Below are positions 3,083-28,388 of a stretch of 32,394 nucleotides of DNA, piece by piece (position 1 is the stretch's first letter; every line of letters begins with the position of its first letter). Both the position numbers and the translations under genes were made by a program. The notes beneath the pieces were generated by a model, which saw only the letters and a program-made list of their open reading frames with translations, had not been told where the DNA came from and made no database searches. The stretch covers positions 1-32,394 of the forward strand of contig CAZCBM010000003.1 of the NCBI GenBank assembly GCA_964496805.1, read 5' to 3'. The DNA is from an uncultured Rhodospirillales bacterium (GTDB taxonomy: Bacteria > Pseudomonadota > Alphaproteobacteria > CAZCBM01).

Positions 3083-3916
3083 ATGAGAGGCTTTCGGCGG
3101 AACCGGGGGGCTACCGCCCTGACTTATGGGTTGGTTGTCGGGCTTGTGGCCGTGGCCGGCCTTTCGGCCGTGACCCGGATGGGGGATGCGATCGGCACCA
3201 ATTTCACCAATGTCTCCAGTACCTTGACCGATGCCGCAGAGCGTGGCGGCGGGTCCGTGGCCACCCTACCCACACCCACACCGATCCCGGAGATCATCGG
3301 CACAAGCTGTGCGGACGGGCTCAGCAACTATCCGAGCCTTCAGGACCAGGATGGGGTGTACACGGTGGACATGACCGGTGGGGACGACAGTGATGCCGAG
3401 CAGGTCTGGTGCGACATGACCTCAGAGGGCGGAGGCTGGACCTATCTTTGGGCAGCCCCATCGACAGGGCTCAGCGAGCCTGCGCTTGGCGCCAGTATCA
3501 GCTATGCCGGGACCGGCTCTTCCGGGTGCCTCAGCACGCGTGTGATCAGCAATACGGAAAGCGATTTCCAGTATTTCTATGCTTACAACTGTGCTGCTGC
3601 CCGTGCGCAGCTCACCTTCACTTGGTCCAATCCCATTGCCGCAACAGAGGTCCGGTTCGCGGCCGTCGCTGGGGGGAATAATCGGCTGTTGCGGTTGAAC
3701 GGCACCAACGTTCAACAGCTGAGCAGCGGCAAAGCCTACTTCTACAACGCCAACAGCTACAGCTGCAGCACCAACAATTGCTGGCGCAGCGCGATCACCA
3801 GTCAGGAGCCTCGCGCGGCGGCCTTCAGTGGCACATTGACTATTTTTACCCGTGGCGACGGTGACAACAACCAGTGGGGCGGATCCGGTGGGATCTGGCT
3901 TGTATCGGTGCGTTGA
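3083..3916 (+). CDS. Flp/Fap-type prepilin-like N-terminus fused to a secreted Cys-containing fibrinogen-like (CDMxxxGGGW) domain protein
   Basis: A strong RBS (GGGAGGGAG) lies 6 nt upstream of the ATG. The N-terminus MRGFRRNRGATALTYGLVVGLVAVAGLSAVTRMGDAIGTNFTNV matches the Flp pilin core. A Pro/Thr linker follows, then DGVYTV...VWCDMTSEGGGWTYLW. There are six Cys. GC is lower than in neighbouring genes (lines 3541-3600 and 3721-3780 are 43% and 53% GC by my count). Confidence 0.75.
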   Translation: MRGFRRNRGATALTYGLVVGLVAVAGLSAVTRMGDAIGTNFTNVSSTLTDAAERGGGSVATLPTPTPIPEIIGTSCADGLSNYPSLQDQDGVYTVDMTGGDDSDAEQVWCDMTSEGGGWTYLWAAPSTGLSEPALGASISYAGTGSSGCLSTRVISNTESDFQYFYAYNCAAARAQLTFTWSNPIAATEVRFAAVAGGNNRLLRLNGTNVQQLSSGKAYFYNANSYSCSTNNCWRSAITSQEPRAAAFSGTLTIFTRGDGDNNQWGGSGGIWLVSVR

Positions 3917-5605: not shown

Positions 5606-7228
5606 CTACCCCTCAGCCACCTGCTGACGCAGGATGTGCTTTTGGACCTTGCCTGTGACAGTCTTGGCAATGGGTTCAAACCGGACTTCTGTGGGGCACT
5701 TGTAATGGGCGATGCTGGCACGGCAGTGGGCGATCAGATCCTCTGCTGTGGGTGCCGCGACCCCTTCTGCCAATTCCACAAACGCCACCGGTGTTTCGCC
5801 CCACTTAGGGTGGGGCTTCGCCACCACGGCGCAACTGGCCACCGCAGGGTGGGTGTAGAGGGCGTCCTCCACCTCGATGCTCGAAATATTCTCCCCGCCG
5901 GAGATGATAATGTCCTTCGACCGATCCCGAAGTTGGACATAGCCATCGGGATGGACGACGGCGAGGTCGCCGGTATGGAACCAGCCACCGGCAAAGGCTT
6001 TGTCAGTGGCGTCGCCGTCCTTGAGATATCCCTTCATGACCATATTGCCCTGCATCATCACCTCCCCCAGGGTTTCCCCATCGGCAGGCACGGGCAGCAT
6101 TGTGTCAGGGTCCGCCACCATCACCCCTTCCTGGGTGGGATAGGCAATGCCCTGGCGGGATTTCTTTTCTGCCTGCTGAGGGATCGGCAGGGCATCCCAT
6201 GCCTGATGCCACGCGCACACCATCGCGGGGCCGTAGACCTCTGTCAGCCCATAGGTGTGGGTGACGCTGATGCCTTTCTCGGCCATGGCCGCCAGGACGC
6301 TGGCCGGCGGTGGCGCGGCTGCAGTCATCATCTGCACCTTTTGATCGAAGGGCCGCGCCTCGGCTGTGGAAGCATTCAGGATCATCTGCATGACGATGGG
6401 CGCCCCACACAGGTGGGTCACCCCATGGTCGGCGAAAGCGTCATAGATGGGCTTGGGCGCCACCTTGCGCAGGCCCACATGGGTGCCGCCAAGGGCAGTG
6501 ATGGTCCACGGGAAGCACCAGCCGCTGCAATGAAACATCGGCAGCGTCCACAGATAGGTGGGCTGCAAGCCCATGCCGCCCCAGGCCAAAACGTTGCCCA
6601 CCGCGGTCAGATAGGCACCGCGGTGACTGTACAGCACTCCCTTGGGTCGGGCGGTGGTGCCGGAGGTGTAGTTGAGCGTCAGCGGGGCCCACTCGTCCTC
6701 CGGCAGGGACCACGCAAAATCAGGATCGCCTGCCGCCAGCAGGTCCTCATACTCGCAGTCCCCAAGCCGTTCGCCACCGGGGCCCACCGGATCGTCGATG
6801 TCGATCACAGGCGGTGGATTGTCCAGACGGGCCAGAGCCTCCTTCACAAGGGGCGCATGCTCGGTATCGCTCAGCAGCAGCTTTGCCTCGCCATGCTCCA
6901 GGATGGTGGCCACCATGCCAGGGTCCAGGCGGGTATTGATGGGGTTCAGGATGGCTCCCAGCATGGGAACACCGTGCAGCGCCTCCCACATGGCCGGGAT
7001 GTTTGGTGCCAGGATCGCCACCACATCGCCCTTGTGGATCCCACGCTGCCCCAAGGCCGAGGCCAGGCGCCGACAGCGGGCATAGACCTCAGACCAGGTG
7101 TGCCGGACGGGGCCATGGATGAAGGCCGGATGATCCGGATAGCCGAGGGCCGCTCGGGGGAGGAAGCTGAGCGGAGAGAGCGGCGCGTGGTTGGCTTCGG
7201 TGCGGGGCAGGGGATCAGGCTGGGTCAT
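5606..7228 (-). CDS. AMP-dependent acyl-CoA synthetase (medium/short-chain type)
   Basis: Adenylate-forming motifs are intact: YTSGTTARPKGV (A3), YGLTE, HTGD...RSKDIIISGGENISSIEVE (A7/A8) and KTVTGKVQK (A10). The N-terminus ANHAPLSPLSFLPRAA is typical of this subfamily. No SD sequence precedes the ATG. Confidence 0.9.
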   Translation of the reverse strand: MTQPDPLPRTEANHAPLSPLSFLPRAALGYPDHPAFIHGPVRHTWSEVYARCRRLASALGQRGIHKGDVVAILAPNIPAMWEALHGVPMLGAILNPINTRLDPGMVATILEHGEAKLLLSDTEHAPLVKEALARLDNPPPVIDIDDPVGPGGERLGDCEYEDLLAAGDPDFAWSLPEDEWAPLTLNYTSGTTARPKGVLYSHRGAYLTAVGNVLAWGGMGLQPTYLWTLPMFHCSGWCFPWTITALGGTHVGLRKVAPKPIYDAFADHGVTHLCGAPIVMQMILNASTAEARPFDQKVQMMTAAAPPPASVLAAMAEKGISVTHTYGLTEVYGPAMVCAWHQAWDALPIPQQAEKKSRQGIAYPTQEGVMVADPDTMLPVPADGETLGEVMMQGNMVMKGYLKDGDATDKAFAGGWFHTGDLAVVHPDGYVQLRDRSKDIIISGGENISSIEVEDALYTHPAVASCAVVAKPHPKWGETPVAFVELAEGVAAPTAEDLIAHCRASIAHYKCPTEVRFEPIAKTVTGKVQKHILRQQVAEG

Positions 7229-7571: not shown

Positions 7572-8381
7572 TCACAGCGCCCAGGGTGGTTTCGCCCGCT
7601 CAAAGAAGGCGCCGATCCCGTCCGCGGCTTCTTGCGTTTCCCACGCGTCCGCCAGAGCAACGGCGGAGGCATGGGCGAGATCGACACCGGGCTGATCCGC
7701 AACGCTGTGCAGCAGGGCCTTGGCGCGGGCAACCGCGCCGGGGGCACATTTCATCAGCGCCTTGATCTCCTGCTCTACAGCCTGGTCCAGGGCGTCAGCC
7801 GGAACCACGCGGTGCACCAAGCCCAGCGTCCTGGCCTCCGCGGCGTCGAACAGTCGCCCATGCATGAACACCGTCCGCGCTGCTCCCGGGCCCATCCGGC
7901 GGATGACGAAACTGGAGATGTTGGCTGGAATGATGCCCAGCTTAGTCTCAGTGAACGCAAAGCGGGCCCCCTCGGCGGCGATGGTGACATCGCCCACGGC
8001 CATCAGGCCCAGTCCACCACCAAAGGCCTGCCCGTTTACCCGGATGATCAACAGCTTGGACAACCGATCCAGAGCGCGCAGCATATCGGCCAGGGTGCGG
8101 CTTTCCGTGATCCTGCCGTCGCGGCTGTTGGCCGCCTGATCCTGCATCCAGGCCAGATCGCCACCGGCGCAGAAACTGGTGCTGCCGGTGCCTGTCAAAA
8201 CCACCGCCCGCAGATTTTCATCGCCATCCGCCACCTCGGCCATGCGCTGGAGGTCGGCAATCATCTGCGGGTTCATGGCATTGTGCTTATCGGGGCGATT
8301 AAGGCTCACCCATGCAATGCCCCGGTCCTCGATGGTGACCGCCAAGCTGTCAAAGGACTGGGCCGCCAGTCCGCTGCTCAT
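7572..8381 (-). CDS. liuC: enoyl-CoA hydratase family; by context methylglutaconyl-CoA hydratase
   Basis: Crotonase motifs FCAGGDL and GGGLGLMAVGDV...FTETKLGIIP are present. The start overlaps the upstream ligase stop (ATGA at 8378-8381). It sits among the other liu genes. Confidence 0.8.
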   Translation of the reverse strand: MSSGLAAQSFDSLAVTIEDRGIAWVSLNRPDKHNAMNPQMIADLQRMAEVADGDENLRAVVLTGTGSTSFCAGGDLAWMQDQAANSRDGRITESRTLADMLRALDRLSKLLIIRVNGQAFGGGLGLMAVGDVTIAAEGARFAFTETKLGIIPANISSFVIRRMGPGAARTVFMHGRLFDAAEARTLGLVHRVVPADALDQAVEQEIKALMKCAPGAVARAKALLHSVADQPGVDLAHASAVALADAWETQEAADGIGAFFERAKPPWAL

Positions 8382-10012
8382 TGGCTTGCCTCTTGGATAT
8401 GCTGGGCCTGGATCTTCTTGCGATCCGGGCCGCCGGCGATGCGGGGGAAGTCCGTCACGAACCGGATGACGCGGGGATACTCATGGGCGCCCAACCGGCT
8501 TTTGACATAGCCCCGGATGGCCTCTTGCGTTTCTGTTGAGGGGTCAGCGCCCTCCTTCAGGACGATCCACGCGCCCACCACCTCAGTCCGCTTCTCGTCG
8601 GGAACGCCAAACACTGCCGCCGCCGCAACGGCCTCGTGGGTTTCCAGGTGGCGTTCGATCTCGGCCGGGCCGATGCGATAGCCAGCGGAGGTGATCACAT
8701 CATCCACCCGACCGGCCCAACTGACATAGCCGTCCTCATGCTGCACCCCATAGTCGCCCGTATAGAGCCAGCCGCCGCGGATCTTCTGCGCCGTGGCGTC
8801 GGGGTCGTTCCAGTATTCCAGCATCATGACCGGGTCCGGGGCCTTGATGGCGATCAGCCCCGTTTCCCCCACCGGCATGGGGTTGGCGTCCACATCCAGG
8901 ACCGCAACGGTGCGTCCCGGTGCCGGTTTGCCCAGCTTGAAAGGCTTGGCCTCCATGATCCGGGCATTGGTGCCGACACAGGCATTGCACTCGGTCTGGC
9001 CATAGTAATCGTGCATCTTGCAGCCGAAGACTTGCTCTGACCAGTCCTGCAACTCGGGTGTGAAGGGTTCGCCACCGCTGATGATCGCGCGGACCTTCAG
9101 GTCATAGCGTGCGCCGAGGTCCGGGTCCTCCCGCAGCACTTTGCTGGCGGTGGGGGGCAGGAACATGCAGGTGATGCCTTCGTCCTGCATCAACTGGAAA
9201 GTGGCGGCTGGCTCAAACCGTTGGGCGCGATTGGCAACGGTGGGCCGGCCCAGCAGCAGGGCGGGGAACAGGCAGCACAGCGAGCCGGCAATGAAGCCCC
9301 AGTCGGCGGGAGTCCAGAACACATCTGCCCCGTCCTCCGTGGGGAAATCCAGGCCCATTTCCACCCCAGTCATGCCCCCATGCACCACCGAATGCGGCAG
9401 CAGGGTGCCGTTGGGATCCCCGGCACCGGCGGCCGCGTAGTACAACAGTGCGGGATCGCTGGCCCCCGTGTCCACGCAGGGGAAGCTATCCGAATGGCCC
9501 TGGGTGGCCTCCCGCAGATCGCTGACACCCTCGGTCGCTCCGTCAATGCTGAAGACGGCTGTCAACGCGGGCAGGGTGCTGCGCACACTGGCCAGTTTCT
9601 CCACGCCGGACGCGTCAGTGATCAGGGCCTTGGCGCTGGCGTGGCTCAGACGGAATTGCAATGCCTCCGCCATGAAGATGGGGGCCAGTGGCATCAGGAT
9701 CGCGCCCATCTTCAGGACCGCCAGATAACCAGCGGCAGCCGCGAAACTCTGCGGCAGAAACACGCCCACGCGATCCCCGCGCGTGACGCCAGCGGCAGTC
9801 AGGGCATGGGCGATGCGACTTGCCTCCGCCTCCAATTGGGCGAAGTCGTAGGAGGCGCCCTCCGCCCCGGGCTCAACGATCGCAACCCGACCCGGGGCCT
9901 CCCCGGCCCAGCGGCTGCAACAGGCCTGCGCGATGTTCAGCCGCTCCGGAAGGGTCCAGCGGAAACCCTCTATCAGGGCATCGTAACTGTCGGCGGGGGT
10001 CAGCACGGGCAT
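8378..10012 (-). CDS. AMP-binding (acyl-CoA synthetase) family paralog with degenerate P-loop and A10 motifs
   Basis: It aligns along its full length with the ligase at 26702-28327. YGQTE and TGD...GRVDDVITSAGYRIGPAEIE are conserved. The A3 loop reads YYAAAGAGDPNG instead of YTSGTTGPPKG, and the C-terminal motif reads PRIAGGPDRKK instead of PLTATGK. Confidence 0.85.
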   Translation of the reverse strand: MPVLTPADSYDALIEGFRWTLPERLNIAQACCSRWAGEAPGRVAIVEPGAEGASYDFAQLEAEASRIAHALTAAGVTRGDRVGVFLPQSFAAAAGYLAVLKMGAILMPLAPIFMAEALQFRLSHASAKALITDASGVEKLASVRSTLPALTAVFSIDGATEGVSDLREATQGHSDSFPCVDTGASDPALLYYAAAGAGDPNGTLLPHSVVHGGMTGVEMGLDFPTEDGADVFWTPADWGFIAGSLCCLFPALLLGRPTVANRAQRFEPAATFQLMQDEGITCMFLPPTASKVLREDPDLGARYDLKVRAIISGGEPFTPELQDWSEQVFGCKMHDYYGQTECNACVGTNARIMEAKPFKLGKPAPGRTVAVLDVDANPMPVGETGLIAIKAPDPVMMLEYWNDPDATAQKIRGGWLYTGDYGVQHEDGYVSWAGRVDDVITSAGYRIGPAEIERHLETHEAVAAAAVFGVPDEKRTEVVGAWIVLKEGADPSTETQEAIRGYVKSRLGAHEYPRVIRFVTDFPRIAGGPDRKKIQAQHIQEASQ

Positions 10013-10038
10013 GAGAGTCAGGCTCCTCTGGCGACAAC

Positions 10039-10057
10039 TGATCCGGGGCCCGGATCA
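10039..10057 (-). other. intercistronic hairpin overlapping the HMG-CoA lyase stop codon
   Basis: TGATCCGG pairs with CCGGATCA (8 bp, 3-nt loop). No U-tract follows. The RBS AGAGGAG of the next gene comes immediately after. Confidence 0.3.
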
Positions 10058-10933
10058 GGAAACGGTTGCGGCAGCCGGGGTGATGAGACGGCGAATGTGG
10101 GTGGCGGCCAGGGTCAGGGAGTCCCTGTCGATGCCATGGCTGAGCCCCAGCTCCTCCACCACATCCAACACTGTTTCAGTGGCTACATTGCCCCGGGCGC
10201 CTGGCGCATAGGGGCATCCGCCCAGCCCCGTAACGGCGCTGTCCACATGGCGCAGTCCCCGCTCCAGACTAAGCCGCAGCGTCTCGGCGGCACGGCCATT
10301 GGTGTCATGATAGTGGGCTGCCAGGCGGTCCGCATCGGCCACCTCAAGCACGGCATCCAGCATGGCACCAATACTCTCCGGCGTGCCCCGTCCCACGGTG
10401 TCACCCAGGCTGACCTGCTCCACCCCTTCGGCCAACAGCCCTTCGGTGACGCGGGCCACCGCCTGGGGTGCGATGGGGCCTTCGTAGGGGCAGACCACCA
10501 CGGTGGAGACGTAACCCCTCACCGGTATGCCATCGGCCTTGGCGGCCGCAAGAATCGGCCGGAATCGCTCAAAGCTCTCGGCGATAGAGCAGTTTATGTT
10601 CTTCTGACTGAAGGTCTCGCTGGCCGCGGCAAACACCGCCACAGCGTCCGCCCGCGCCTCGCGCGCTGCTTCATAGCCCTTCATATTAGGCGTCAGGACA
10701 CTGTAGCGCACGCCCGGTGCCCGGATGATCGCGGCCATCACCGCCCCGGCATCTGCCATCTGCGGCACCCATTTGGGGCTGACGAAGGCCGTCGCCTCAA
10801 TCTCCTGAAAACCGGCCGCGCTGAGCAGGTTGATCAGCTGAACCTTGTCACTGGTGGACACCGGGGTGCGTTCATTCTGTAGGCCGTCGCGGGGGCCCAT
10901 CTCGTGGATGGTGACAAAGGCGGGGTCGGTCAT
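10055..10933 (-). CDS. liuE: hydroxymethylglutaryl-CoA lyase
   Basis: Motifs GPRDGLQNE, EATAFVSPKWVPQMAD and GLGGCPYAPGARGNVATE are present. The start overlaps the carboxylase alpha stop (ATGA). Confidence 0.9.
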   Translation of the reverse strand: MTDPAFVTIHEMGPRDGLQNERTPVSTSDKVQLINLLSAAGFQEIEATAFVSPKWVPQMADAGAVMAAIIRAPGVRYSVLTPNMKGYEAAREARADAVAVFAAASETFSQKNINCSIAESFERFRPILAAAKADGIPVRGYVSTVVVCPYEGPIAPQAVARVTEGLLAEGVEQVSLGDTVGRGTPESIGAMLDAVLEVADADRLAAHYHDTNGRAAETLRLSLERGLRHVDSAVTGLGGCPYAPGARGNVATETVLDVVEELGLSHGIDRDSLTLAATHIRRLITPAAATVS

Positions 10934-13020
10934 GGCGTTACCGGTGCCTCCTGTTCCTCCTCGGCGAGACGAATGAGGACAGTGCCTTCACTCACCAGCG
11001 CGCCCGCCTCCGCCCCGACGCTCTCCACCGTACCGGCGCGGGGGGCACGCAGGGTGTGTTCCATCTTCATGGCCTCAACGATGATGAGGGGCTGGTCCTT
11101 CTCTACGGCGTCCCCTGGCTTGACCAGAACATCCCGCACCACACCGGGGAGATCAGCCGTGATGACGGGTTCAGCCGCCAACTCGTCATGGTCCATCTCG
11201 CCGACGATGTTGTCCCGCAGCAGGAACAGGCGGTCCGTCAACTCAAAGAACAGCCGGCCATCCTCCAGCACATAGTCCCGCACATTGTAGGAGGGCTCGC
11301 CGTTTGCCGTGCCCTCATAGGAACCCCACTGGTTGGGTGCCCAAGCGGCTGTCCCTTCGCCAAGCCCTGGCACCGCCAGGGTGACGGTGATGGCCCGGTC
11401 CCCCGTGCGCTGGCATCGCAGCAAGCCCGATAGGCGCTGGCCATTGACCTCCGCCGCCACCGGATAGCTCAGGGTCCCAAACTGGGTGAAGCCCGCCTGG
11501 GAGGTCCAGGGCGAGGTGCTCCCCTCCTTCGGGCGTTTTCGCTGCTGCCACGCTGGCAAAAGCGAAAGTGCCATGTCCGCCAGATGGCCGGGGCTGGTGA
11601 CCTCTTGGATGGGTCCCAGAAGGCTGTCCCCATGCCGGTCGATGAAGCCGGTGTCGATGAGCCCCGCGCCGAAGTCCGGGTGCTCCAGACACTTTACCAG
11701 AAAGCTGCGGTTGGTCTTGCACCCTTCCACCAGGGAACAGCGCAGGGCCTCCGAGAGGGCCGTTACCGCGGACTCCCGATTGGGTTCATGGGCGATCAGC
11801 TTGGCGATCATCGGATCATAGAAGGGCGTGACGACGCTGCCGCGGACAACGCCCGTGTCCAGCCGGATGCGGTCGGATCCGCGCCCATGGGTGAAAGGGG
11901 TGGCATAGTCATCGACATAGCCGGCCAAAAAGGACAGTCGGCCGGTGGAGGGAAGGAAGCCGCTGTCCGGGTCCTCAGCATAGAGCCGGGCTTCGATGGC
12001 ATGACCTGAGATGGCAAGCTCATCCTGGGATTTGGGCAAGGGCTCGCCCTGCGCCACCCGCAACTGCCACTCCACCAGATCTTGACCGGTGATGGCCTCC
12101 GTAACCGGATGCTCCACTTGCAGGCGGGTATTCATCTCCATGAAATAGAAGCGGTCCGCCTGTAGACCTTCCGAGACGTCGGCGATGAACTCGATGGTGC
12201 CCGCCCCCACATAGTCGATGGCCTTGGCCGCTTTCACCGCCGCCTCACCCATGGCCGCCCGCATGGCCTCGCTCATGCCAGGGGCTGGCGCTTCCTCAAT
12301 CACCTTCTGGTGGCGGCGTTGCAGGCTGCAATCACGCTCGAACAAGTGCACGACGGACCCGTGAGTGTCCCCAAACACCTGGATTTCGATGTGGCGCGGT
12401 GTGGTCAGGAACTTCTCGATCAGGACCCGGTCATCGCCGAAACTGTTGGCGGCCTCGCGCTTGGCACCGGCCAGCGCCGACGGCAAGTCCGCTGGTTCAT
12501 CCACCCGCCGCATGCCCTTGCCACCACCGCCAGCCACGGCCTTGATAAGGACGGGATACCCGATCCGGCCAGCCTCTGCGGCCAAGGTCTCCGGCGCCTG
12601 ATCCTCCCCTTGATAGCCCGGAACAACGGGAACCCCGGCCTCAATCATCAGTCGCTTGGCTGCGTCCTTCAGGCCCATGGCGCGGATGGAGGATGACGAG
12701 GGGCCAACAAAGATGATCCCGGCGGCGGCCAGCGCGTCAGCGAAGTCCGCGTTTTCCGACAAAAAGCCATAGCCCGGATGGACCGCGTTTGCCCCGGTCT
12801 GATGGCAGGCGTCGATGATCCGATCTGGCCTGAGATAGCTTTCCGCCGCGGGTGGCGGGCCGATGGCCACCGCTTCGTCTGCCATGGCAACATGGCGGGC
12901 ATTGGCGTCAGCCTGAGAATACACGGCCACCGTGGGGATCTGCATCTGACGGGCCGTGTGGATCACGCGGCACGCGATTTCCCCGCGATTGGCGATCAGC
13001 AGCTTATGGATCTTTCCCAT
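10930..13020 (-). CDS. liuD: methylcrotonyl-CoA carboxylase alpha (biotin carboxylase + BCCP) subunit
   Basis: Has KLLIANRGEIACR, an ATP-grasp region and the biotinylation motif EAMKMEH near the C-terminus. I prefer the ATG at 13020 (GAGGAT RBS 7 nt upstream) over the GTG at 13035 used by the track. Confidence 0.9.
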   Translation of the reverse strand: MGKIHKLLIANRGEIACRVIHTARQMQIPTVAVYSQADANARHVAMADEAVAIGPPPAAESYLRPDRIIDACHQTGANAVHPGYGFLSENADFADALAAAGIIFVGPSSSSIRAMGLKDAAKRLMIEAGVPVVPGYQGEDQAPETLAAEAGRIGYPVLIKAVAGGGGKGMRRVDEPADLPSALAGAKREAANSFGDDRVLIEKFLTTPRHIEIQVFGDTHGSVVHLFERDCSLQRRHQKVIEEAPAPGMSEAMRAAMGEAAVKAAKAIDYVGAGTIEFIADVSEGLQADRFYFMEMNTRLQVEHPVTEAITGQDLVEWQLRVAQGEPLPKSQDELAISGHAIEARLYAEDPDSGFLPSTGRLSFLAGYVDDYATPFTHGRGSDRIRLDTGVVRGSVVTPFYDPMIAKLIAHEPNRESAVTALSEALRCSLVEGCKTNRSFLVKCLEHPDFGAGLIDTGFIDRHGDSLLGPIQEVTSPGHLADMALSLLPAWQQRKRPKEGSTSPWTSQAGFTQFGTLSYPVAAEVNGQRLSGLLRCQRTGDRAITVTLAVPGLGEGTAAWAPNQWGSYEGTANGEPSYNVRDYVLEDGRLFFELTDRLFLLRDNIVGEMDHDELAAEPVITADLPGVVRDVLVKPGDAVEKDQPLIIVEAMKMEHTLRAPRAGTVESVGAEAGALVSEGTVLIRLAEEEQEAPVTP

Positions 13021-13031
13021 GCCAGTGATCC

Positions 13032-14639
13032 TCACATGCGGAAGACGCCGGGGCGCCAGTCGGGGATGGGCTTGTTCAGCGCCGCGGAGAAGCTGAGCGC
13101 CACGACGCTGCGGGTGTCCCGGGGATCTATAATGCCGTCATCCCACAGCCGTGCCGAGGAATAGATCGGGCGCCCTTGGTGCTCGAACTGGTCTTGATAG
13201 GGGCGCTTGAATGCCGCCTCCTCCTCGGCGCTCCACGTGCCGCCCTTGGCTTCGATGGCATCGCGGCGCAGGGTCGCCAGAACCCCGGCCGCTTGGTCCC
13301 CGCCCATGACGCTGATCCGGGCGTTGGGCCACATCCACAGGAAGTTTGGGCTGTAGGCTCGCCCCGCCATGCCGTAGTTCCCGGCGCCGAAACTGCCCCC
13401 AATCAGCACCGTCACCTTGGGCACATTGGCCGTGGCCACCGCGGTCACCAGTTTGGCGCCGTCCTTGGCAATGCCGCCGCTTTCATATTTGCGGCCCACC
13501 ATGAAGCCGGTGATGTTCTGCAAGAACAGCAGCGGGATCTTCCGTTGGCAGCACAGTTCAATGAAGTGAGCGCCCTTGAGGGCTGCCTCGCTGAACAGGA
13601 TGCCATTATTGGCCAAGATGCCCACCGGCATGCCATGGATGTGGGCGAAGCCGGTCACCAGCGTCTGGCCGTAGAGGTGCTTGAACTCATCCAGTTCGCT
13701 GCCATCCACGACCCTGGCAATCACTTCCCGCACATCATAGGGCTGCTTGAGATCGGCGGGGACAACCCCATGAAGCTCCGCTGGATCGTGGATCGGTGGG
13801 CGCGGGTCCCGCATCACCAACTGATCGGGCTTGGCGCGGTTCAGGTGGCCGACGATCCGTCGGGCCATGGCACAGGCATCGGCATCGTCGGCGGCATAAT
13901 AATCGCTGACGCCGGACACCTTGGCATGGACATCCGCCCCCCCCAGGTCCTCGGCGCTCACCACCTCCCCAGTGGCGGCCTTCACCAGGGGCGGCCCTCC
14001 CAAGAAGATGGTGCCTTGGCGACGCACGATGATGTTCTGCTCGCTCATGGCGGGGACGTAGGCACCCCCGGCGGTGGAAGAGCCCATCACGACGCTGATC
14101 TGCGGGATGCCCGCCGCACTCATCGTGGCTTGGTTGTAGAAGATGCGGCCAAAATGATCCCGGTCTGGGAAGACTTCGTCCTGATTGGGCAGGTTGGCTC
14201 CGCCGCTGTCCACCAAGTAAACGCAGGGCAGGTTGTTCTGGGCCGCGATCTCCTGCGCGCGTAGATGCTTCTTCACCGTCAAGGGGAAGTAAGTGCCACC
14301 CTTCACCGTGGCGTCGTTCGCCACAATCATGCACTCCAGCCCCTTGATCCGGCCCACCCCGGTGATCATCCCGGCCGAGGGAACCTCATCGCCATACATC
14401 TCGGCGGCTGCAAACAGACCCACCTCCAGGAAGGGGGAGCCCCGGTCCAGCAGGTGGGCGATGCGATCCCGAGGCAGCAGTTTGCCGCGCGCCAGGTGCT
14501 TCTCCCGGGCACGCTCTGGCCCCCCGTGTTGGATGCGCTGGGCCAGGGCGGCGACGTCCTCCACCTGTGCCGCCATAGCGTCAGCATTGGCCTGGAACGC
14601 GGGCGAGGATGGATTGATTTTGGTGGGCAGCGGGCGCAT
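13032..14639 (-). CDS. liuB: methylcrotonyl-CoA carboxylase beta (carboxyltransferase) subunit
   Basis: 535 aa with a two-lobed carboxyltransferase layout ([26 protein letters not shown]; GGAYVPAM). The start overlaps the isovaleryl-CoA dehydrogenase stop by 1 nt (TGATG). Confidence 0.9.
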
Positions 14640-15811
14640 CAGGCGGTCTCTTGAAACAGCTCGCGGCCGATCAGCATGCGACGGATCTCGCTGGTGCCAG
14701 CGCCGATCTCATACAGCTTGGCGTCGCGTAGCAGGCGGCCGGTGGGATAATCATTGATGTAGCCATTGCCCCCCAGGGCCTGGATCGCCTCCAGCGCCAT
14801 CCAGGTTGCCTTTTCAGCCGCGTAGAGGATGGCGCCAGCCGCATCCTTGCGCGCCGTCTCCCCCCGGTCGCAGGCCTGAGCCACCGCATAGACATAGGCT
14901 TTGGTGGCGTTCATCGTGGTGTACATGTCAGCAATCTTGCCCTGCATCAGCTGAAATTCACCGATGGCGCGGCCGAACTGTTTGCGCTCGTGAATGTAGG
15001 GGATCACCACGTCCATGCAGGCCTGCATCAGCCCGGTGGAACCAGCCGCCAGCACCGCGCGCTCATAGTCCAGGCCACTCATCAAGACGCGCGCACCGCG
15101 GTTTAACTCCCCCAGGATGTTTTCCTCGGGCACTTCGCAATCTTCAAACACCAATTCGCCGGTGGGGCTTCCCCGCATGCCCAGCTTGTCCAGCTTCTGG
15201 GCAACGCTGAAACCCTTGAACTCCTTCTCGATCAGAAACGCCGTGATGCCCTTGGAGCCGGCGTCGGGATCGGTTTTGGCATAGACCACGAGCGTGTCAG
15301 CCTCCGTGCAGTTGGTGATCCAGAACTTGCTGCCGTTCAGCACATAGCGATCGCCCTTCTTCTCCGCCCGGGTTTTCATGGACACGACGTCTGACCCGGC
15401 CCCGGGTTCGCTCATGGCCAGGGCGCCCACATGCTCGCCGCTGATCAACTTGGGCAGATAGCGGGCCTTCTGCTCGTCGGTGCCGTTCAGATTGATCTGG
15501 TTGATGCACAGATTGGAATGAGCGCCGTAGCTCAGGCCGACGCTGCCAGAGGCGCGGCTGACCTCCTCCATGGCGATGCAGTGCTCCAGATAGCCAAGGC
15601 CGGTGCCGCCCTGCGCCTCCGGAACGGTGATGCCATGCAGCCCCAGGTCCCCCATGGGCTGCCACAGCTCCCGGGGGAAGCGATCGGTGCGGTCGATCTC
15701 TGCGGCCAGGGGAGCAATCTGTTCTTGGGCGAAGCTGGCCACGGTCTGGCGCAGCATCTCAGCGGTTTCACCCAGATTGAAGTTCAGCGTGGGATACTCG
15801 TTGGGGATCAT
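14639..15811 (-). CDS. liuA: isovaleryl-CoA dehydrogenase
   Basis: ACAD motifs [17 protein letters not shown] and [19 protein letters not shown] are present. It has IVD-like length (390 aa) and sits directly upstream of the carboxylase genes. Confidence 0.9.
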
Positions 15812-15859: not shown

Positions 15860-16363
15860 TTAGACAAGCCGCTCGTCGCTCATGCCTTCCATTCGGATCA
15901 TGGTCATCAGGGCCTTGGCGATCAGGGTTCTCTGGCCATCTTTCTCTGCCTCCACGGTGCCGTCCACCACATTCAGGGTGCGACCAGGCTTGATGACAAC
16001 GCCGGTGGCAATCAGGCGCTCTCCCTGCGCTGGGCTCAGAAAATTGATCTTGTACTCCGTCGTCAGCGGCGCGGCCGTGGCCGGGTAGAGGCTCATGGCG
16101 GCATAGCCACAGGCGCTGTCGCAGATACAGGCCACGGCGCCGCCGTGGACATACCCATGCTGCTGCAACACCGGCTCGGCATAGGGCAGCACCACTTGGA
16201 AATAGCCGGGGGCAACAACGCCCACATGGGCACCAAGGGTTGCCATCAGCGGCTGTCGGCTAAAGCTGTCCCTCACCCGCTGCTCGAAGGCCGGATCCTT
16301 CGGCTCAAACGGCGGTGGCGGTGGGGCGAGGCTGGCTGCTGTCGCCACGTCGGCCGCCCTCAC
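15860..16363 (-). CDS. PaaI-family hotdog-fold thioesterase
   Basis: Motif QQHGYVHGGAVACICDSACGYAA with a hotdog-size domain. The GTG start overlaps the LivF-like stop (GTGA at 16360-16363). Confidence 0.8.
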   Translation of the reverse strand: MRAADVATAASLAPPPPPFEPKDPAFEQRVRDSFSRQPLMATLGAHVGVVAPGYFQVVLPYAEPVLQQHGYVHGGAVACICDSACGYAAMSLYPATAAPLTTEYKINFLSPAQGERLIATGVVIKPGRTLNVVDGTVEAEKDGQRTLIAKALMTMIRMEGMSDERLV

Positions 16364-17199
16364 AGCCAGCGCTTGCGACGGCGGAAACTCTTGATGTCCT
16401 TGAAGGACTTGCGCTCGCCGCTGCCGCCGCCCAGGTAGAACTCCTTGACGTCCTCGTTATTGCGCAAATCCTCTGCCCGGCCATCCAGAACGATCTTGCC
16501 CTGTTCCATGATGTAGCCGTACTGAGCGATGCCCAGCGCCATATTGGCGTTCTGCTCCACCAGCAGAATGGTGATGCCCAAGTCCCGGTTCAGCCGTCGG
16601 ACAATGGAAAACACCTCCTTCACCAGCAACGGCGACAGGCCCATGGAGGGCTCGTCCATCAACATCAGCTTGGGACGGGCCATCATGGCGCGGCCGATGG
16701 CCAACATCTGTTGCTCGCCGCCAGAGAGATACCCTGCCAGTCCCGTGCGCTCCTTCAGCCGGGGAAAGTAGTGGTAGATCTTCTCGATCTCTTCGCGAAC
16801 GTTGCTTTGCTTCTGGGTGAAGGCACCCAGGCGCAGGTTTTCCTGAATGGTCATGTCCTGGACGATGCGTCGACCCTCCATCACCTGGAAGATCCCTTGA
16901 CGCACGATCTTCTCCGGCGGCAGGTGGGTGATGCTCTGCCCTGCGAAGCGGATATCGCCGCGCTCAACCTCGCCATTCTCCGTGCGCAGGAGGCCACTGA
17001 TGGCCTTTAGCGTGGTGGATTTGCCGGCGCCATTGGCCCCCAGCAGGGCTGTGATGGATCCTGGCATCACCTGCAGGCTCATGCCGCGCAAGACCTGGAT
17101 CACATGGTCATAGACCACCTCGATATTATCCACCACCAGCATGGGCTCGGTGGCGCTTTCCCCTTTGGGGGTGGGATCAGCAGTGGTGTCCAGGGGCAT
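16360..17199 (-). CDS. ABC transporter ATP-binding protein, LivF-like
   Basis: Walker A GANGAGKST and the signature plus Walker B LSGGEQQMLAIGRAMMARPKLMLMDEPSMGL are present. It ends in an unusual basic C-terminal tail, KSFKDIKSFRRRKRWL. Confidence 0.9.
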   Translation of the reverse strand: MPLDTTADPTPKGESATEPMLVVDNIEVVYDHVIQVLRGMSLQVMPGSITALLGANGAGKSTTLKAISGLLRTENGEVERGDIRFAGQSITHLPPEKIVRQGIFQVMEGRRIVQDMTIQENLRLGAFTQKQSNVREEIEKIYHYFPRLKERTGLAGYLSGGEQQMLAIGRAMMARPKLMLMDEPSMGLSPLLVKEVFSIVRRLNRDLGITILLVEQNANMALGIAQYGYIMEQGKIVLDGRAEDLRNNEDVKEFYLGGGSGERKSFKDIKSFRRRKRWL

Positions 17200-17248
17200 T
17201 GGCGCAAGGGCTCCCAGCCGGGTTGGGGACCATCAACATTCACAAACG

Positions 17249-17285
17249 AAAAAACAGGGGGAGGGGCGGCAGGGCCGCCCCTCCC
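17249..17285 (-). terminator. strong intrinsic terminator or attenuator between the binding-protein gene and the LivF-like gene
   Basis: On the minus strand, GGGAGGGGCGGC-CCT-GCCGCCCCTCCC forms a perfect 12-bp stem (17259-17285), followed by CCTGTTTTTT (A-run at 17249-17254 on the plus strand). It begins 9 nt after the stop at 17294. Confidence 0.7.
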
Positions 17286-17293
17286 AGCAGATA

Positions 17294-18520
17294 TCAGCGG
17301 CCCAACCAGCGCGGGTCACGCTCCAGCACCACCGTGTCCAACTGCTCCAGCTCAGCGGCGCCGAAGACGAAGGACCCCCGGTTGATCACCACCTGCATGG
17401 TGCCGCGGTGGTCGCTGTCGGTCCAAATGGACGGCTGGCAGACGCCCTCCAGGCCGGCGGGCACCCAGCCGCCCTCAGCTGCATGGGCGGCGGAATGGGC
17501 ATACATGCCCTGACGGATACCGGGGCCGGTGATCTCCCCATTCTCCGCCTTTGCCCATTCCATGGCTTCCTTCATGTAATAGGCGGTGCAGACGCCACGC
17601 AGATAGTGGTGGGTGGGGTTGGCGTCGGTGGGCTTGCCCGCCTGCTCCAGGATCGCGGTGATGGTGGCCATGCCCGGCACGTCAGTGCCATAGGGCGGGT
17701 TGGCGGAGGGGAACATCAACTCGCTGGCCTCAGCGGCCTTGATCGTCTCCTCATCGCCGCCCCAGACATTGGCCATGAACTGGGTCTCAACGCCGGCGGA
17801 GGAGCAGGACTTCAGCAGCGCGACGACGGAGCCGCCCAGGTTGCCGATCCAGGTGTATTCCGCCCCGCTCTCGCGGATGGACAGGCACTGCGGGGTGAAG
17901 TCACCGGGGGCCAGCGGCACCACGATGGGCTCCAGGACCTCGAAGCCCAACTCAGCGGCCCATTCGGCGCAGGCTTCCTTAGGGGCGTTGGGGTAGGGGT
18001 GGTTGTCGCCGGTGTGCAGGAACTTCGGGTTCTCGATCCCGCGCTCCTTGGCATCATTGGCAGCCCACTGGACCAGCGCCCGGCAGCCATCGGTGTAGCT
18101 GGGGCCATAGAAGAAGTTGTACGGGCTGTTGGACGGGTCGGTCAGGTGCCCGGAGTAGGAGGCGGACCAGGTCGGGACTTGGTCGTTCTTGACGATGTCC
18201 ACCAGCGCTTCGGTGTCGGCGGTGCCCCAGCCCTGGAGGGCCACCATACCGCGGGCCTGCCAGTCACGATAATAGGACAGGGCTTGGTCCACCTTATAGG
18301 CGTAGTCGACCGTATCCATGTTGATGGTGGTGCCGTCGATGCCGCCATTGGCGTTGATGTAGGCAACAGCGTCGGCGATGGCCGGGCCATAGAAGCTGCC
18401 GACGAAGGCAGTGGCACCGGTGAAGTCCACCAGGTGGCCAACGAACACCTCGTCGGCCTTGGCGGCGGAGACGCCGGCGGAAAGGGCCAGCGCAGTGGTG
18501 AGTACAAGAGCCTTCTTCAT
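17294..18520 (-). CDS. periplasmic substrate-binding protein, LivK/type-I PBP-like
   Basis: From the ATG at 18520, the signal peptide is MKKALVLTTALALSAGVSAAKA|DE, with a GGGAGGA RBS 10 nt upstream. It has PBP-like length (408 aa). The track start at 18640 adds 40 non-signal residues. Confidence 0.85.
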   Translation of the reverse strand: MKKALVLTTALALSAGVSAAKADEVFVGHLVDFTGATAFVGSFYGPAIADAVAYINANGGIDGTTINMDTVDYAYKVDQALSYYRDWQARGMVALQGWGTADTEALVDIVKNDQVPTWSASYSGHLTDPSNSPYNFFYGPSYTDGCRALVQWAANDAKERGIENPKFLHTGDNHPYPNAPKEACAEWAAELGFEVLEPIVVPLAPGDFTPQCLSIRESGAEYTWIGNLGGSVVALLKSCSSAGVETQFMANVWGGDEETIKAAEASELMFPSANPPYGTDVPGMATITAILEQAGKPTDANPTHHYLRGVCTAYYMKEAMEWAKAENGEITGPGIRQGMYAHSAAHAAEGGWVPAGLEGVCQPSIWTDSDHRGTMQVVINRGSFVFGAAELEQLDTVVLERDPRWLGR

Positions 18521-18591
18521 GGCGATAGAGTCCTCCCAGGACAAGTTATGGTTGCTTTGGGCCAAGGGTCGGCAGGGGGGCGGAACGGATC

Positions 18592-19776
18592 TCAGTACGC
18601 AAAGGGATAGAGCTTCACATAGGCTTTGATCCGCTTCCACAGATGGTTGAGACCATCCGGCTGGAAGATCAGGAAGAGGATAATGGCAAGGCCGATGGCC
18701 ATGCCACGGATGTAGGCTTGGGCGCTGGACAGGTCGGTGGACATCTCATATCCGACCACGGCCACCACGCTGGCCGCCAGGGCAAACAGGCTGCCCACCA
18801 GCCAACTGGCGGCATAGGGCAGCATGGTGATGAAAATCGCCCCCATCACCGTGCCCTGGATGGACCCAAGGCCGCCGATGATGATCATGGACAGAAACTC
18901 GATGGATCGCCCAATGGTGGCGAACTTGTCCACCTGCTCCAGGTCGAAGCGACCATTGTAGAACATGAACAGCCCGCCAGCGATGGCACCGAAAAAGGCG
19001 GCAATGGCAAAGCCCATAATCCGGTACTTGGCCAGATTGATGCCCATGATCTCCGCCGAAAGATAGTGATCGCGGACGGCCACCAGGGCGCGGCCATCAC
19101 GGCTGCGGATCAGGTTTGCCATGGCGATGAAACTGATCACGGCCACCAGCAGAACGACATAGAGGAACACCGGCGTATTGTTGATGAACTCAATGCCGAA
19201 CAGGGTCACCTCCGGCATGGTCCCGGCCGTCTCCTCATCCACCAACCAATGGGCGCGCTTGAGGAAGTCGCCCAGGATCACGGCGGCGGCCAGTGTGGCG
19301 ATGACCAGATAAATCCCCTTGATGCGCAGCGCCGGCAGCCCGAAGAGCGCGCCAGCGGCGGCACCGATGATCCCGGTCAGGGGCAAGGCCAGCAGCGGCG
19401 GGATGGGCGGCAAGCTGACACTCTCGTCGGTAAAGGGCAGGGTGCCCCCACGGCACAGCCAAGCGAACACCAGCGCCCCAAAGGCGAAGAACGCCCCTTG
19501 GCCCAGGCTGATCTGGCCTGTGAACCCCACCAGAATATTCAGGCCCAGGGCGGCAATGGCAAAAATGCCGATGGTGACAAGGTTGTTCATCAGGCCCGCG
19601 GTGGCGCCCTGTTCCCCAATCAACCGGTCGATGCCCGGGGCCAAGATCGGGAACAGGAAGCACAGGGAGATGAACACGCACACCCGCCAGAAGCTGCCAC
19701 GGGTGTCGTACAGCGTCATGTCGCTGGCATAGGTCTGGCGGAAGTCGCCGGCAGGGCGGCGGGAGGCGGCTAACAT
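18592..19776 (-). CDS. ABC transporter permease, LivM-like
   Basis: Polytopic membrane protein with the HAAT-family motif GQISLGQGAFFAFGA. Confidence 0.85.
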   Translation of the reverse strand: MLAASRRPAGDFRQTYASDMTLYDTRGSFWRVCVFISLCFLFPILAPGIDRLIGEQGATAGLMNNLVTIGIFAIAALGLNILVGFTGQISLGQGAFFAFGALVFAWLCRGGTLPFTDESVSLPPIPPLLALPLTGIIGAAAGALFGLPALRIKGIYLVIATLAAAVILGDFLKRAHWLVDEETAGTMPEVTLFGIEFINNTPVFLYVVLLVAVISFIAMANLIRSRDGRALVAVRDHYLSAEIMGINLAKYRIMGFAIAAFFGAIAGGLFMFYNGRFDLEQVDKFATIGRSIEFLSMIIIGGLGSIQGTVMGAIFITMLPYAASWLVGSLFALAASVVAVVGYEMSTDLSSAQAYIRGMAIGLAIILFLIFQPDGLNHLWKRIKAYVKLYPFAY

Positions 19777-19782
19777 GGCGGC

Positions 19783-20871
19783 TCAGACCCTTTCAATATC
19801 TTTGGTGCCGAACAGCCCGTAGGGCTTGATCATCATCACAATCAGCAGGACCCAGAAGGGCGCCACCTCCACCAGGTTCATGCCCCCACCGAGGCCCAGT
19901 TCAATCCACGCGGAAAGGCGCTGAACCACCCCGATGATCACACCCCCGACGATGCCCCCGGCAATGCTGTCCAGGCCGCCGACGATGGCTGCGGGGAACA
20001 CCGCAATCCCGTTGGCTGCCAGTTCTCCGCTCATGGAGTTGATCAGCGCAAACTGGATGCCGGCCACGGCGGACACTAGGGCGCTGATCCCCCACGCCAG
20101 GGCGAACACGCTGCGCACCGAAACCCCCAGGCTGGCGGCCACCTGCTGATCGAAGGCGGTTGCACGCATGGCAAGGCCGTGGCGGGACATTCGGAAGAAG
20201 GTGTAGAACAGGATCGTGATGCCGATGGCCAGGACAGCGCCCAGCGCCAGGGAAGCATTCTGGTTGGTCCCCAGGATCTCCACGTTTCCACGGCAGACCA
20301 GTTGCAAATCCGCCAGGGTGTCGGCGGGAACATTCTCCTCCAGACGGCGGGCCAAGGACCTCACCTTCAGGTTATCGCAGAGGTCCTGGATGGTGAGGAT
20401 CCCCTCCTCCCGCGAGCGCGCCCCGGCACCGGCCCAATCAAATCGGCCAACGATGCCGCCCTGAAGCGTATCCGACACCCACTGGGAGACGTTGGGCATG
20501 CTCTGTGCGGCGGTGCCGAACATCCACTTCAGCAACGAGTTGAAGAACAGCGACAGGCCAATGGTCACCATGATCACGGAGATCAGCGGCTCGCCCAGCA
20601 GGGGGCGCATCACCACCACCTGGATCAGCACACCGATGACAAAGGTAAAACCCAGGGTGACCAGGAAGGCCAACCAGAAGGGTAACCCCACCTGCGCCAC
20701 CATGGCCCAACCGATCCAGCCCCCCAGGATCAGGAACTCGCCCTGAGCAAAGTTCACCACCTGCGTGGACTTGTAGATCAAGACAAAGCACATCGCGACC
20801 ATGCCATACAGCAGGCCCACCAGCACCCCATTGATCAGATACTCGGGTAGAACGCCAATGTTCTCAAACAT
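19783..20871 (-). CDS. ABC transporter permease, LivH-like, with an enlarged hydrophilic loop
   Basis: N-terminal VVNFAQGEFLILGG and C-terminal LivH-like TM segments are present. A hydrophilic segment of roughly 85 aa (residues about 120-207) lies between TM helices. As I remember E. coli LivH, its equivalent loop is about 35 aa. Confidence 0.85.
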   Translation of the reverse strand: MFENIGVLPEYLINGVLVGLLYGMVAMCFVLIYKSTQVVNFAQGEFLILGGWIGWAMVAQVGLPFWLAFLVTLGFTFVIGVLIQVVVMRPLLGEPLISVIMVTIGLSLFFNSLLKWMFGTAAQSMPNVSQWVSDTLQGGIVGRFDWAGAGARSREEGILTIQDLCDNLKVRSLARRLEENVPADTLADLQLVCRGNVEILGTNQNASLALGAVLAIGITILFYTFFRMSRHGLAMRATAFDQQVAASLGVSVRSVFALAWGISALVSAVAGIQFALINSMSGELAANGIAVFPAAIVGGLDSIAGGIVGGVIIGVVQRLSAWIELGLGGGMNLVEVAPFWVLLIVMMIKPYGLFGTKDIERV

Positions 20872-20910
20872 GCCAAGACCTCCCGGTTGCGAGGACGCTA
20901 AAGGGTTCGG

Positions 20911-22890: not shown

Positions 22891-22895
22891 GGGGC

Positions 22896-23789
22896 TTACT
22901 CCGCGGCTTCGGCTTTGTCGGCAGCGCTGCCGGTCTCGTCCTCATCATCTTCCAGGGACTCACCCAGATAGGCGGTCTTGACCTGGGGATGGGCCATGAC
23001 ATCGGCCGGCAGGCCCTCGGCGATCTTTTTGCCGAAATCCAGCACCACCACCCGTTGGCTGATGTCCATGACGACGCCCATGTCATGCTCGATCATGATG
23101 ACCGTCATGCCCCATTCTTCATTCAGGTCCATGACGTAGCGGGCCATATCCTCCTTCTCCTCCAGGTTCATGCCCGCCATGGGCTCATCCAGGAGGATTA
23201 GGTCTGGCTTCAACGCAATGGCACGGGCCAGTTCCACGCGCTTACGCAGGCCATAGGACAACACACCAGCCGGCTGGTTGCGCACATGCTGGATTTCCAG
23301 AAAGTCGATGATGTCCTCAACCGCGCGTCGGTGCTCAATCTCTTCTTGCTGCGCCCCAAACAACCAATAGAAGCACCCTGTCAGTACGTTGTTTTTGATC
23401 AGGTGGTGACGACCCACCAAAATATTGTCCAGGACTGACATGTGGCCGAACAAAGCCAAGTTTTGGAAGGTTCGCCCGATGCCCAGATCCGCCCTGGAAT
23501 TGATGGATCGGCGGATCAAGTCCTCACCGCGATAGGTGATGGACCCCTCATTGGGCTTGTAGCGCCCCGAGATGCAATTCAGCGTTGAGGTCTTGCCAGC
23601 ACCATTGGGGCCGATGATCGATACCAACTCCCCCTTGTCCACATGAAAGGACAGGTTGCTCAGGGCCTTCAGTCCCCCAAAGCGCAAGGAGATGTTGTCG
23701 ACCGTCAGCAGTCGTTCCTTTGCGGAGGAAACGGCAGATGCGGCAGGGTTTGTGCCTTGATCAGGCAACACAGCAGCCGGGCTGGACAA
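22896..23789 (-). CDS. ABC transporter ATP-binding protein, LivG-like
   Basis: Walker A GPNGAGKTS and LSYGLRKRVELARAIALKPDLILLDEPMAGM are present. It has an acidic C-terminal tail, ESLEDDEDETGSAADKAEAAE. There is no in-frame ATG near the N-terminus. The TTG at 23789 has GAGGAGG 9 nt upstream, and a GTG at 23771 is an alternative. Confidence 0.85.
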   Translation of the reverse strand: MSSPAAVLPDQGTNPAASAVSSAKERLLTVDNISLRFGGLKALSNLSFHVDKGELVSIIGPNGAGKTSTLNCISGRYKPNEGSITYRGEDLIRRSINSRADLGIGRTFQNLALFGHMSVLDNILVGRHHLIKNNVLTGCFYWLFGAQQEEIEHRRAVEDIIDFLEIQHVRNQPAGVLSYGLRKRVELARAIALKPDLILLDEPMAGMNLEEKEDMARYVMDLNEEWGMTVIMIEHDMGVVMDISQRVVVLDFGKKIAEGLPADVMAHPQVKTAYLGESLEDDEDETGSAADKAEAAE

Positions 23790-25531: not shown

Positions 25532-25582
25532 GGCCACCCGTTGCGACGATGCTGCCGTGAGTGGTCGGGCAGGGGAGAGGGA
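25532..25582. repeat. diverged second copy of the 5457-5523 palindromic element
   Basis: Ungapped alignment of 25532-25582 with 5473-5523 gives 38 of 51 identical positions by my hand count, covering arm, loop and arm. The hairpin GGCCACCC / GAGTGGTC is still possible with one mismatch and one G-U pair. Confidence 0.45.
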
Positions 25583-28327: not shown

Positions 28328-28388
28328 TGTAAGTCGAGACCGGCTGAGGACGGGGACAATCCCCAGCCAAGACACAGCGTCCGGTGCA

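Follow-up and report, generated by a model that had tools for sequence, protein, structure and literature searches.

A conserved acyl-CoA synthetase paralog with degenerate adenylation motifs is encoded within a leucine-catabolic (liu) operon of an uncultured alphaproteobacterium

Introduction

ANL enzymes form a very large and intensively studied superfamily. Its medium- and branched short-chain acyl-CoA synthetases, as described for human ACSM2A (3b7w/2vze/3c5e), S. aureus MbcS (NF047394), Brucella canis ACS (5u2a), and B. subtilis-type AcsA (9g79), share a two-domain fold. The P-loop (motif A3) of ANL enzymes orients the beta and gamma phosphates and binds the leaving pyrophosphate. Among class I adenylate-forming enzymes, the P-loop lysine is 97% conserved, P-loop mutations severely inhibit activity, and the lysine of motif A10 is one of five residues found to be invariant in 374 enzymes (PMC6122825). 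Loss of the A10 lysine disables adenylation selectively and spares the thioester half-reaction; elsewhere in the active site, the A7 aspartate and the A8 arginine hold the ribose and the A8 glycine lines the pantetheine tunnel (PMC11255334). Here we describe ANLx (protein P0001), an ANL-superfamily protein with the same two-domain fold in which the P-loop and the A10 lysine are both replaced, encoded within the liu operon of an uncultured Rhodospirillales bacterium (contig CAZCBM010000003.1, positions 1 to 32,394; this whole stretch of 32,394 nucleotides is referred to as the window).

At the A10 lysine position, ANLx is a natural equivalent of Acs K609A and acetylated Acs (2p2j, 1pg3) and of the A10-lysine mutants of PrpE or luciferase. 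Those cases concern functional ligases that were mutated in the laboratory or are reversibly regulated, whereas the loss in ANLx is fixed and conserved and includes the P-loop. To our knowledge, the half-reactions of ANL enzymes have so far been separated only by mutation or reversible lysine acetylation. When the literature was consulted, no ANL protein of the ANLx kind was found to be linked to liu and no ANL pseudo-ligase was found to be described in a liu operon. The analyses reported below indicate that ANLx is a real, conserved, and selectively disabled ANL paralog of a leucine-catabolic operon, which may be regarded as a pseudo-enzyme or re-purposed ligase.

Residues lost and retained in ANLx

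The ANLx family was aligned to E. coli Acs, the numbering of which is common to the structurally studied S. enterica enzyme, and conservation was measured in an alignment of 119 canonical family members. Residues T193, S194, G195, T196, T197, K201, and K529 were each 100% conserved in these canonical members. In ANLx, the P-loop pattern [ST][ST]G[ST][ST]GxPK was found to be replaced by AAAGAGDPN, with the Ser/Thr and Lys residues substituted in all three orthologs (T264A, S265A, G266A, S267G, T268A, and K272N in Acs numbering), and an acidic residue (D/E199) was present in the ANLx clade at the variable P-loop position corresponding to Acs 270. Similarly, the Gly-Lys of motif A10 was G528-P529 in three of three orthologs. 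The length of the P-loop was retained, as were G198, P200, and G202. These results agree with the initial annotation, which had reported that A3 is replaced at nt 9407-9442 (residues 191-202, YYAAAGAGDPNG) with loss of its Ser/Thr and Lys residues and that the three further ligases encoded in the window are intact, the P-loop and C-terminal lysine motif being retained in each. Its claim that A10 is replaced at nt 8414-8446 stood with regard to the exchange of Lys for Pro529 in PRIAGGPDRKK but not with regard to the 13-residue string that had been given, which runs 6 nt further. Judged against the aligned canonical members, the A3/A10 deviation of ANLx is far beyond ordinary variation.

When the remaining motifs were examined, ANLx was found to carry A5 as YGQTE (consensus YGxTE, residues 337-341) and to match the consensus sequences of A7, (S/T)GD, and A8, Rx(D/K)x6G. 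The residues retained in all three orthologs, in Acs numbering, include (i) G387/E388/P389, which serve adenine; (ii) Q415/T416/E417, D500, and R515; and (iii) the hinge residue D517, G524, R526, and R584, the last as a Lys (K504 of ANLx). By role, the A8 residues of ANLx comprise the ribose Arg, the hinge Asp, the pantetheine-tunnel Gly, and an Arg. Only adenylation-specific residues are gone and the AMP- and CoA-side residues are kept, and thus the loss is selective for the first, ATP-using half-reaction.

The acyl pocket was also found to be altered. Overall, 83 positions were fixed in the ANLx clade yet rare (<2%) in the family, and the acyl-pocket segment was included among these. Within this segment, F240 corresponds to Acs W309 and A242 to Acs T311, L244 is replaced by Ser, and a new Cys is present at position 246, all of which were fixed in the three orthologs; in addition, ANLx has a Gly at the Acs W414 position, consistent with a pocket larger than needed for acetate. 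Compared with the medium- and branched short-chain synthetases, ANLx differs in the P-loop hydroxyls and Lys, in the A10 Lys, and in the pocket residues W240F, G242A, and L244S, although the N-terminal FRWxxPERxN, WTPADW, YGQTECN, TGD, and A8 motifs are common to both. Two further features of the degenerate motifs were considered and rejected. Residues 532 and 533, which might have provided a compensating Lys past P529, are basic in canonical members too, and the resemblance of GAGDPNG to a Rossmann-like GxGxxxG was judged to be due to chance, since the strand and loop that surround this segment in a P-loop are unchanged.

Conservation of ANLx orthologs

Only two close relatives of ANLx were detected in a search of 5.8 billion proteins, P0121 (94% identity) and P0002 (76% identity), which derive from independent Logan assemblies; all other matches in this search were at most 46% identical and canonical. 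When 1.8 billion cluster representatives were searched, P0002 was the sole close representative among the matches listed, many of which were multi-module nonribosomal peptide synthetases. The degenerate A3 and A10 motifs were near-identical in the orthologs (D199 is E in P0121, and I525 is L in P0002), and the 544-aa frame was intact in all three ANLx sequences. Thus, of the two outcomes anticipated by the initial annotation, conservation of the motifs as in a functional subfamily or strain-specific decay, it is conservation that was observed. A separate protein, P0341 (39% identical to P0001), was noted to have a mildly odd P-loop (TSGTEGPPK) and A10 (PKTATFK); this protein retains the two lysines and lies outside the ANLx clade.

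Comparison of the deep pair revealed 76% identity for ANLx (P0001/P0002) versus 64% for the hydratase encoded by the neighboring gene. The differences between P0001 and P0002 fell in 8 of 130 family-conserved columns (6%) compared with 116 of 402 other columns (29%; Fisher P = 9.7e-9), and the GC content at third codon positions of ANLx (0.80) was within the range of the operon (0.77-0.82). As measured by these sequence comparisons, ANLx is at least as constrained as the neighboring hydratase.

The orthologs were also examined for linkage. Hydratase orthologs were identified as P0122 (93-94% identity; 4966-bp contig) and P0123 (64-66%; 6841-bp contig), with P0121 and P0002 located on contigs of the same sizes, 4966 bp and 6841 bp, respectively, and an HMG-CoA lyase ortholog (P0391, 97% identity) was likewise found on a 4966-bp contig. 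From these matching contig sizes, the ANLx-hydratase linkage appears to be conserved in both orthologs and the lyase linkage in one.

A Logan assembly of the probable source run provided one contig over 7572-10933 that was identical across ANLx. Assembly error, a concern raised in the initial annotation, was ruled out because this independent source-run assembly was identical and the two independently assembled orthologs have the same motifs. The single difference between the window and the Logan contig was a C>G at 10277, inside the HMG-CoA lyase gene.

Domain architecture, fold, and family assignment

ANLx was found to have both domains of the ANL superfamily, AMP-binding (PF00501, 216 bits) and AMP-binding_C (PF13193, 61.5 bits), in the two-domain fold. 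In agreement with the initial annotation, it is a full-length paralog of the ligase encoded at 26702-28375 (43-44% identity), with all four of the motifs that had been named as shared, FRWTLPERLN, FWTPADW, YGQTECN, and TGD...GRVDDVITSAGYRIGPAEIE, present in ANLx. The AlphaFold2 model was of high score (predicted local distance difference test [pLDDT] 90.3 and predicted template modeling score [pTM] 0.83), with pLDDT below 50 at P-loop residues 195-197 only. Its best PDB matches by Foldseek were ACSM2A and Acs, with template modeling (TM) scores of up to 0.88 (0.85-0.88 to ACSM2A, 3etc, and 8biq), and the best PDB matches by sequence were 9g79, 5u2a, and ACSM2A. The conformation of the model was considered as a clue to function. 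It resembled the thioester-forming structures 1pg4, 8rpl, and 8bit (TM ~0.86) more than the ATP-bound structures 3c5e and 4fut (TM ~0.7); however, the canonical paralog used as a control gave the same pattern, and the conformation was thus set aside as uninformative. A single prediction of a complex between ANLx and the hydratase gave a score of 0.00, a value that speaks neither for nor against their interaction.

With regard to families of defined function, ANLx scored far below the equivalog cut-offs of NF047394 (MbcS; 285.5 versus 850) and NF003313 (PRK04319; 348 versus 729), and the canonical paralog was below them as well (343 and 404, respectively). Acetoacetyl-CoA synthetase (TIGR01217), which belongs to the same superfamily and would suit the operon position functionally, was far from matched (47.6 bits versus a cut-off of 520.9).

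Relationship of ANLx to the canonical paralog family

The canonical paralog represents a family that is 43-47% identical to ANLx over the full length and was detected in 54 of the 301 genomes that were sampled from the class. Copies of this family in other genomes of the class had the canonical A3 in 36 of 36 cases inspected, and the A10 Gly-Lys was present in all inspected copies for which the locus includes the C-terminus (one locus is cut off by the end of its contig). In one complete genome (G039; L014, C1:1342909-1347465), the family member has a canonical P-loop and its A10, PMTATGKIKRK, is in another reading frame, as would be expected from a frameshift close to the 3′ end. When the surroundings of canonical members were examined within 1.5-kb flanks, liu genes were detected beside 0 of 29 loci. 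One exception was seen in genome G034 (L010, C12:2000-21999), where a canonical member is located inside a liu cluster with the order isovaleryl-CoA dehydrogenase, second acyl-CoA dehydrogenase, ligase, methylcrotonyl-CoA carboxylase (MCC) beta, hydratase, MCC alpha, and HMG-CoA lyase. The family can thus be recruited to leucine catabolism in active form, as a canonical copy resides in this cluster. Overall, the family is uniformly canonical at A3/A10 and usually not beside liu genes, and ANLx is unlike it in both respects.

In a maximum-likelihood tree, the three ANLx sequences formed a clade with 100% support that was sister or basal to the 44 canonical rows. The stem of this clade (0.85 substitutions per site) was the longest inner branch of the tree, with P0001 and P0002 separated by 0.39. 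A clade of ANLx together with the window's own paralog was not rejected by the approximately unbiased test (P = 0.16). A lineage-specific duplication is possible, on this tree, as the source of ANLx.

Possible functions of ANLx in the liu operon

The five classical liu steps were found to be covered by other genes of the operon, with none assigned to ANLx. A true acetoacetyl-CoA synthetase (AacS) is encoded elsewhere in the genome (contig C4, 17729-19645; TIGR01217, 875 bits versus a cut-off of 521), and a CoA-transferase (PF01144), the alternative for acetoacetate, was not found in this 93%-complete genome. Since the classical steps are covered, AacS is encoded elsewhere, and a canonical ligase lies downstream, no pathway gap is apparent for ANLx to fill. 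This downstream PRK08162-family ligase (5606-7228) is a better candidate than ANLx for acid activation, e.g., of isovalerate.

We favor, with a probability of roughly 0.55, the explanation that ANLx is a selected non-adenylating pseudo-ligase that would still bind AMP and/or a pathway acyl-CoA and act as an accessory protein co-produced with the hydratase. According to this scheme, a duplicate of the canonical family would have become part of the liu operon in a single uncultured lineage of Alphaproteobacteria; along one long stem branch, the P-loop and the adenylation Lys would have been lost and the acyl pocket remodeled, and this state would then have been conserved. ANLx has kept the AMP residues (adenine, ribose, and alpha-phosphate/Mg), together with those of the hinge and pantetheine tunnel and the basic residue on the CoA side, and because these binding-side residues are all kept, binding of AMP and/or an acyl-CoA of the pathway has most likely been preserved. 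It would be unable to make acyl-AMP from ATP and would not be the ligase of the pathway, its likely role being that of a ligand-binding accessory, holder, or sensor. That ANLx is non-adenylating we infer from the residue roles described in the literature. Whether as a pseudo-enzyme or as a protein of changed chemistry, the two options put forward in the initial annotation, such a departure from ligase function is supported by the conservation of the motifs in orthologs, by a constraint at least equal to that of the hydratase, and by the loss of adenylation-specific residues alone. If a thioester of the pathway is a ligand or substrate of ANLx, the protein would represent a natural re-use of the ligase fold without ATP, as a sensor, holder, or half-reaction enzyme, and an unexpected component would be added to the textbook leucine pathway. 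Several points weigh against the pseudo-ligase explanation: (i) the pairing of ANLx and hydratase orthologs is based on equal contig sizes and not on an observed gene order; (ii) the clade consists of three sequences only, all metagenomic and from one uncultured lineage, and the conservation statistics are based on one deep pair; and (iii) the retained P-loop length, two Gly, and Pro make an unusual phosphate site conceivable.

The third of these points also bears on the possibility that ANLx is a complete ATP-dependent ligase, acting on, e.g., isovalerate, 3-methylglutaconate, or acetoacetate with a non-canonical mode of beta/gamma phosphate binding. An enzyme that activates acids would fit the place of ANLx in the operon, and the presence of a canonical family member within the G034 liu cluster is in line with such a function; however, the five P-loop hydroxyl/Lys phosphate ligands are all gone, an acidic D/E199 is added, and the invariant A10 Lys is a Pro with no new Lys nearby. 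Single mutations at the A3/A10 sites are known to cripple adenylation in the members studied (PMC6122825, PMC11255334), and the genome already has AacS and the adjacent canonical ligase, such that a working ligase is considered improbable. An enzyme with ATP-independent chemistry at the retained AMP/CoA site is a less doubtful alternative, though still an unlikely one. Such an enzyme might run the reversible second half-reaction, in which acyl-CoA and AMP are interconverted with acyl-AMP and CoA and which would amount to an AMP-dependent thiolysis or hydrolysis of a thioester of the pathway, or might perform a new reaction through clade-specific pocket residues, e.g., S244 and C246. This alternative is consistent with the retention of the residues of the thioester half-reaction (the A8 Gly/Arg, the hinge, and the CoA-side K504) along with those of AMP binding, and with the finding that the second half-reaction can proceed without the A10 Lys (PMC11255334). 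In addition, the pocket was remodeled (W240F, G242A, L244S, and C246) and then fixed in all three orthologs, which looks like a retuning of the pocket for a ligand and not like mere loss. Yet retention of the binding residues is equally expected of a non-catalytic binder, the liu pathway is without a known step that needs ANLx, and the literature gave no ANL enzyme with a stand-alone physiological role of this type. A more specific and rather speculative proposal, based on the residue pattern, is that ANLx might be the first natural 'half-ligase', performing AMP-dependent thiolysis or exchange of, e.g., 3-methylglutaconyl-CoA or HMG-CoA, in which case leucine catabolism would include an unrecognised proofreading or detoxifying step.

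The loss of catalytic motifs and the very small, lineage-specific clade would also be compatible with a decaying relic, in which a recently inactivated duplicate is without function and still awaits deletion. This explanation is very improbable when the constraint on ANLx is considered: the frame is intact, the motifs differ by no more than one or two residues between lineages with hydratases of 64% identity, ANLx is more conserved than the hydratase, its substitutions avoid family-conserved columns (P of about 1e-8), and its codon-position GC pattern is normal. That the odd motifs are a sequencing or assembly artefact is scarcely credible; the metagenome-assembled genome (MAG) is fragmented (498 contigs), but the independent assembly of the source run was identical across the gene, orthologs from two other assemblies share the motifs, and the changes are in-frame substitutions over 83 clade-specific positions. 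Thus, it is the conserved, non-adenylating pseudo-ligase that we consider to best account for ANLx.

Organization of the locus and neighboring genes

The features of the liu operon and of ANLx are listed in Table 1. The genes of the operon are co-directional and are separated by stop/start overlaps of 1-4 nt or by a 42-nt gap, with the latter found between the HMG-CoA lyase stop and the ANLx start. ANLx is thus placed between the HMG-CoA lyase and methylglutaconyl-CoA hydratase genes, and the ATGA overlap with the hydratase start and the lyase gene directly before ANLx, both described in the initial annotation, were confirmed. The PRK08162-family ligase gene is located 344 nt downstream of the operon.

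Table 1. Features of the liu operon, related ligase genes, and ANLx motifs in the window
Feature	Position (nt)	Strand	Description and basis
ANLx (protein P0001)	8378-10012	(-)	544 aa; ANL-superfamily, ACSM/MbcS-like acyl-CoA-synthetase derivative; open reading frame, Pfam, model
Methylglutaconyl-CoA hydratase-type crotonase, LiuC-like	7572-8381	(-)	Pfam ECH_1, NCBIfam PRK07468
HMG-CoA lyase, LiuE	10055-10933	(-)	NCBIfam PRK05692, 418 bits vs cut-off 246
MCC alpha	10930-13035	(-)	Pfam
MCC beta	13032-14639	(-)	Pfam
Isovaleryl-CoA dehydrogenase-type acyl-CoA dehydrogenase	14639-15811	(-)	Pfam; upstream part of liu operon with MCC genes
Canonical acyl-CoA synthetase, PRK08162 family	5606-7228	(-)	843 bits vs cut-off 677; A3 and A10 intact
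Canonical paralog of ANLx	26702-28375	(-)	Member of widespread family
GGAG ribosome-binding site, 10 nt before ANLx ATG	10023-10026	(-)	
ATGA overlap, ANLx stop/hydratase start	8378-8381	(-)	
Degenerate A3 P-loop, residues 191-202, YYAAAGAGDPNG	9407-9442	(-)	Canonical YTSGTTGxPKG
A4/acyl-pocket segment, residues 233-246, WTPADWGFIAGSLC	9275-9316	(-)	Clade-specific W240F, G242A, L244S, N/D246C
Intact A5, residues 336-341, YYGQTE	8990-9007	(-)	T340 = Acs T416, E341 = Acs E417; AMP phosphate and Mg
Intact A7 TGD, residues 418-420	8753-8761	(-)	D420 = Acs D500; ribose-binding Asp
Intact A8, residues 435-453, RVDDVITSAGYRIGPAEIE	8654-8710	(-)	R435 = R515, D437 = D517, G444 = G524, R446 = R526
Degenerate A10, residues 523-533, PRIAGGPDRKK	8414-8446	(-)	Canonical PxTxTGKxxRR; Acs K609 = Pro529

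The source genome is a MAG of 93% completeness for which no relatives closer than class level were found among the genomes searched, and the named best matches of its genes were alphaproteobacterial. DNA of the window was detected in metagenomes of microbial mats, whereas an aquatic metagenome of a separate study contained a strain with 95-99% identity over short contigs; the related-strain contigs in run X3 span just the last ~57 nt of ANLx. No RNA run was present among the sequencing runs listed for the window DNA.

Upstream of the liu operon and head-to-tail with it, a Liv-type ABC importer cluster (15860-23789, minus strand) was identified that encodes two ATPases, two permeases, and one binding protein, with genes for a 659-aa FadD11-like long-chain-type ligase and for a thioesterase of the 4HBT/PaaI type embedded in it. 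Within this cluster, a GC-rich hairpin of 12 bp that resembles a terminator (17285-17259) is located between the binding-protein and LivF-like genes. The canonical paralog of ANLx is flanked (24094-25221 on the minus strand and 30247-31008 on the plus strand) by genes for two further acyl-CoA dehydrogenases, a short-chain dehydrogenase, and a ChaN/Tiki-like protein (25557-26546), which suggests that its surroundings represent a second acyl-CoA catabolic cluster. In this region, a 577-aa open reading frame without a Pfam match (28508-30241, minus strand) was recognized as the shadow of a plus-strand gene for a 558-aa acyl-CoA dehydrogenase (28532-30208), which bears an Acyl-CoA_dh_C extension; long shadow reading frames of a similar kind lie over most genes of the GC-rich window. 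Finally, a 277-aa protein encoded at 3083-3916 (plus strand), within a cluster of pyridoxal phosphate-dependent sulfur-amino-acid enzymes and a rhodanese, was found to resemble Flp/Fap pilins at its N-terminus (PF04964, below cut-off), whereas the domain that follows is not of the pilin type.

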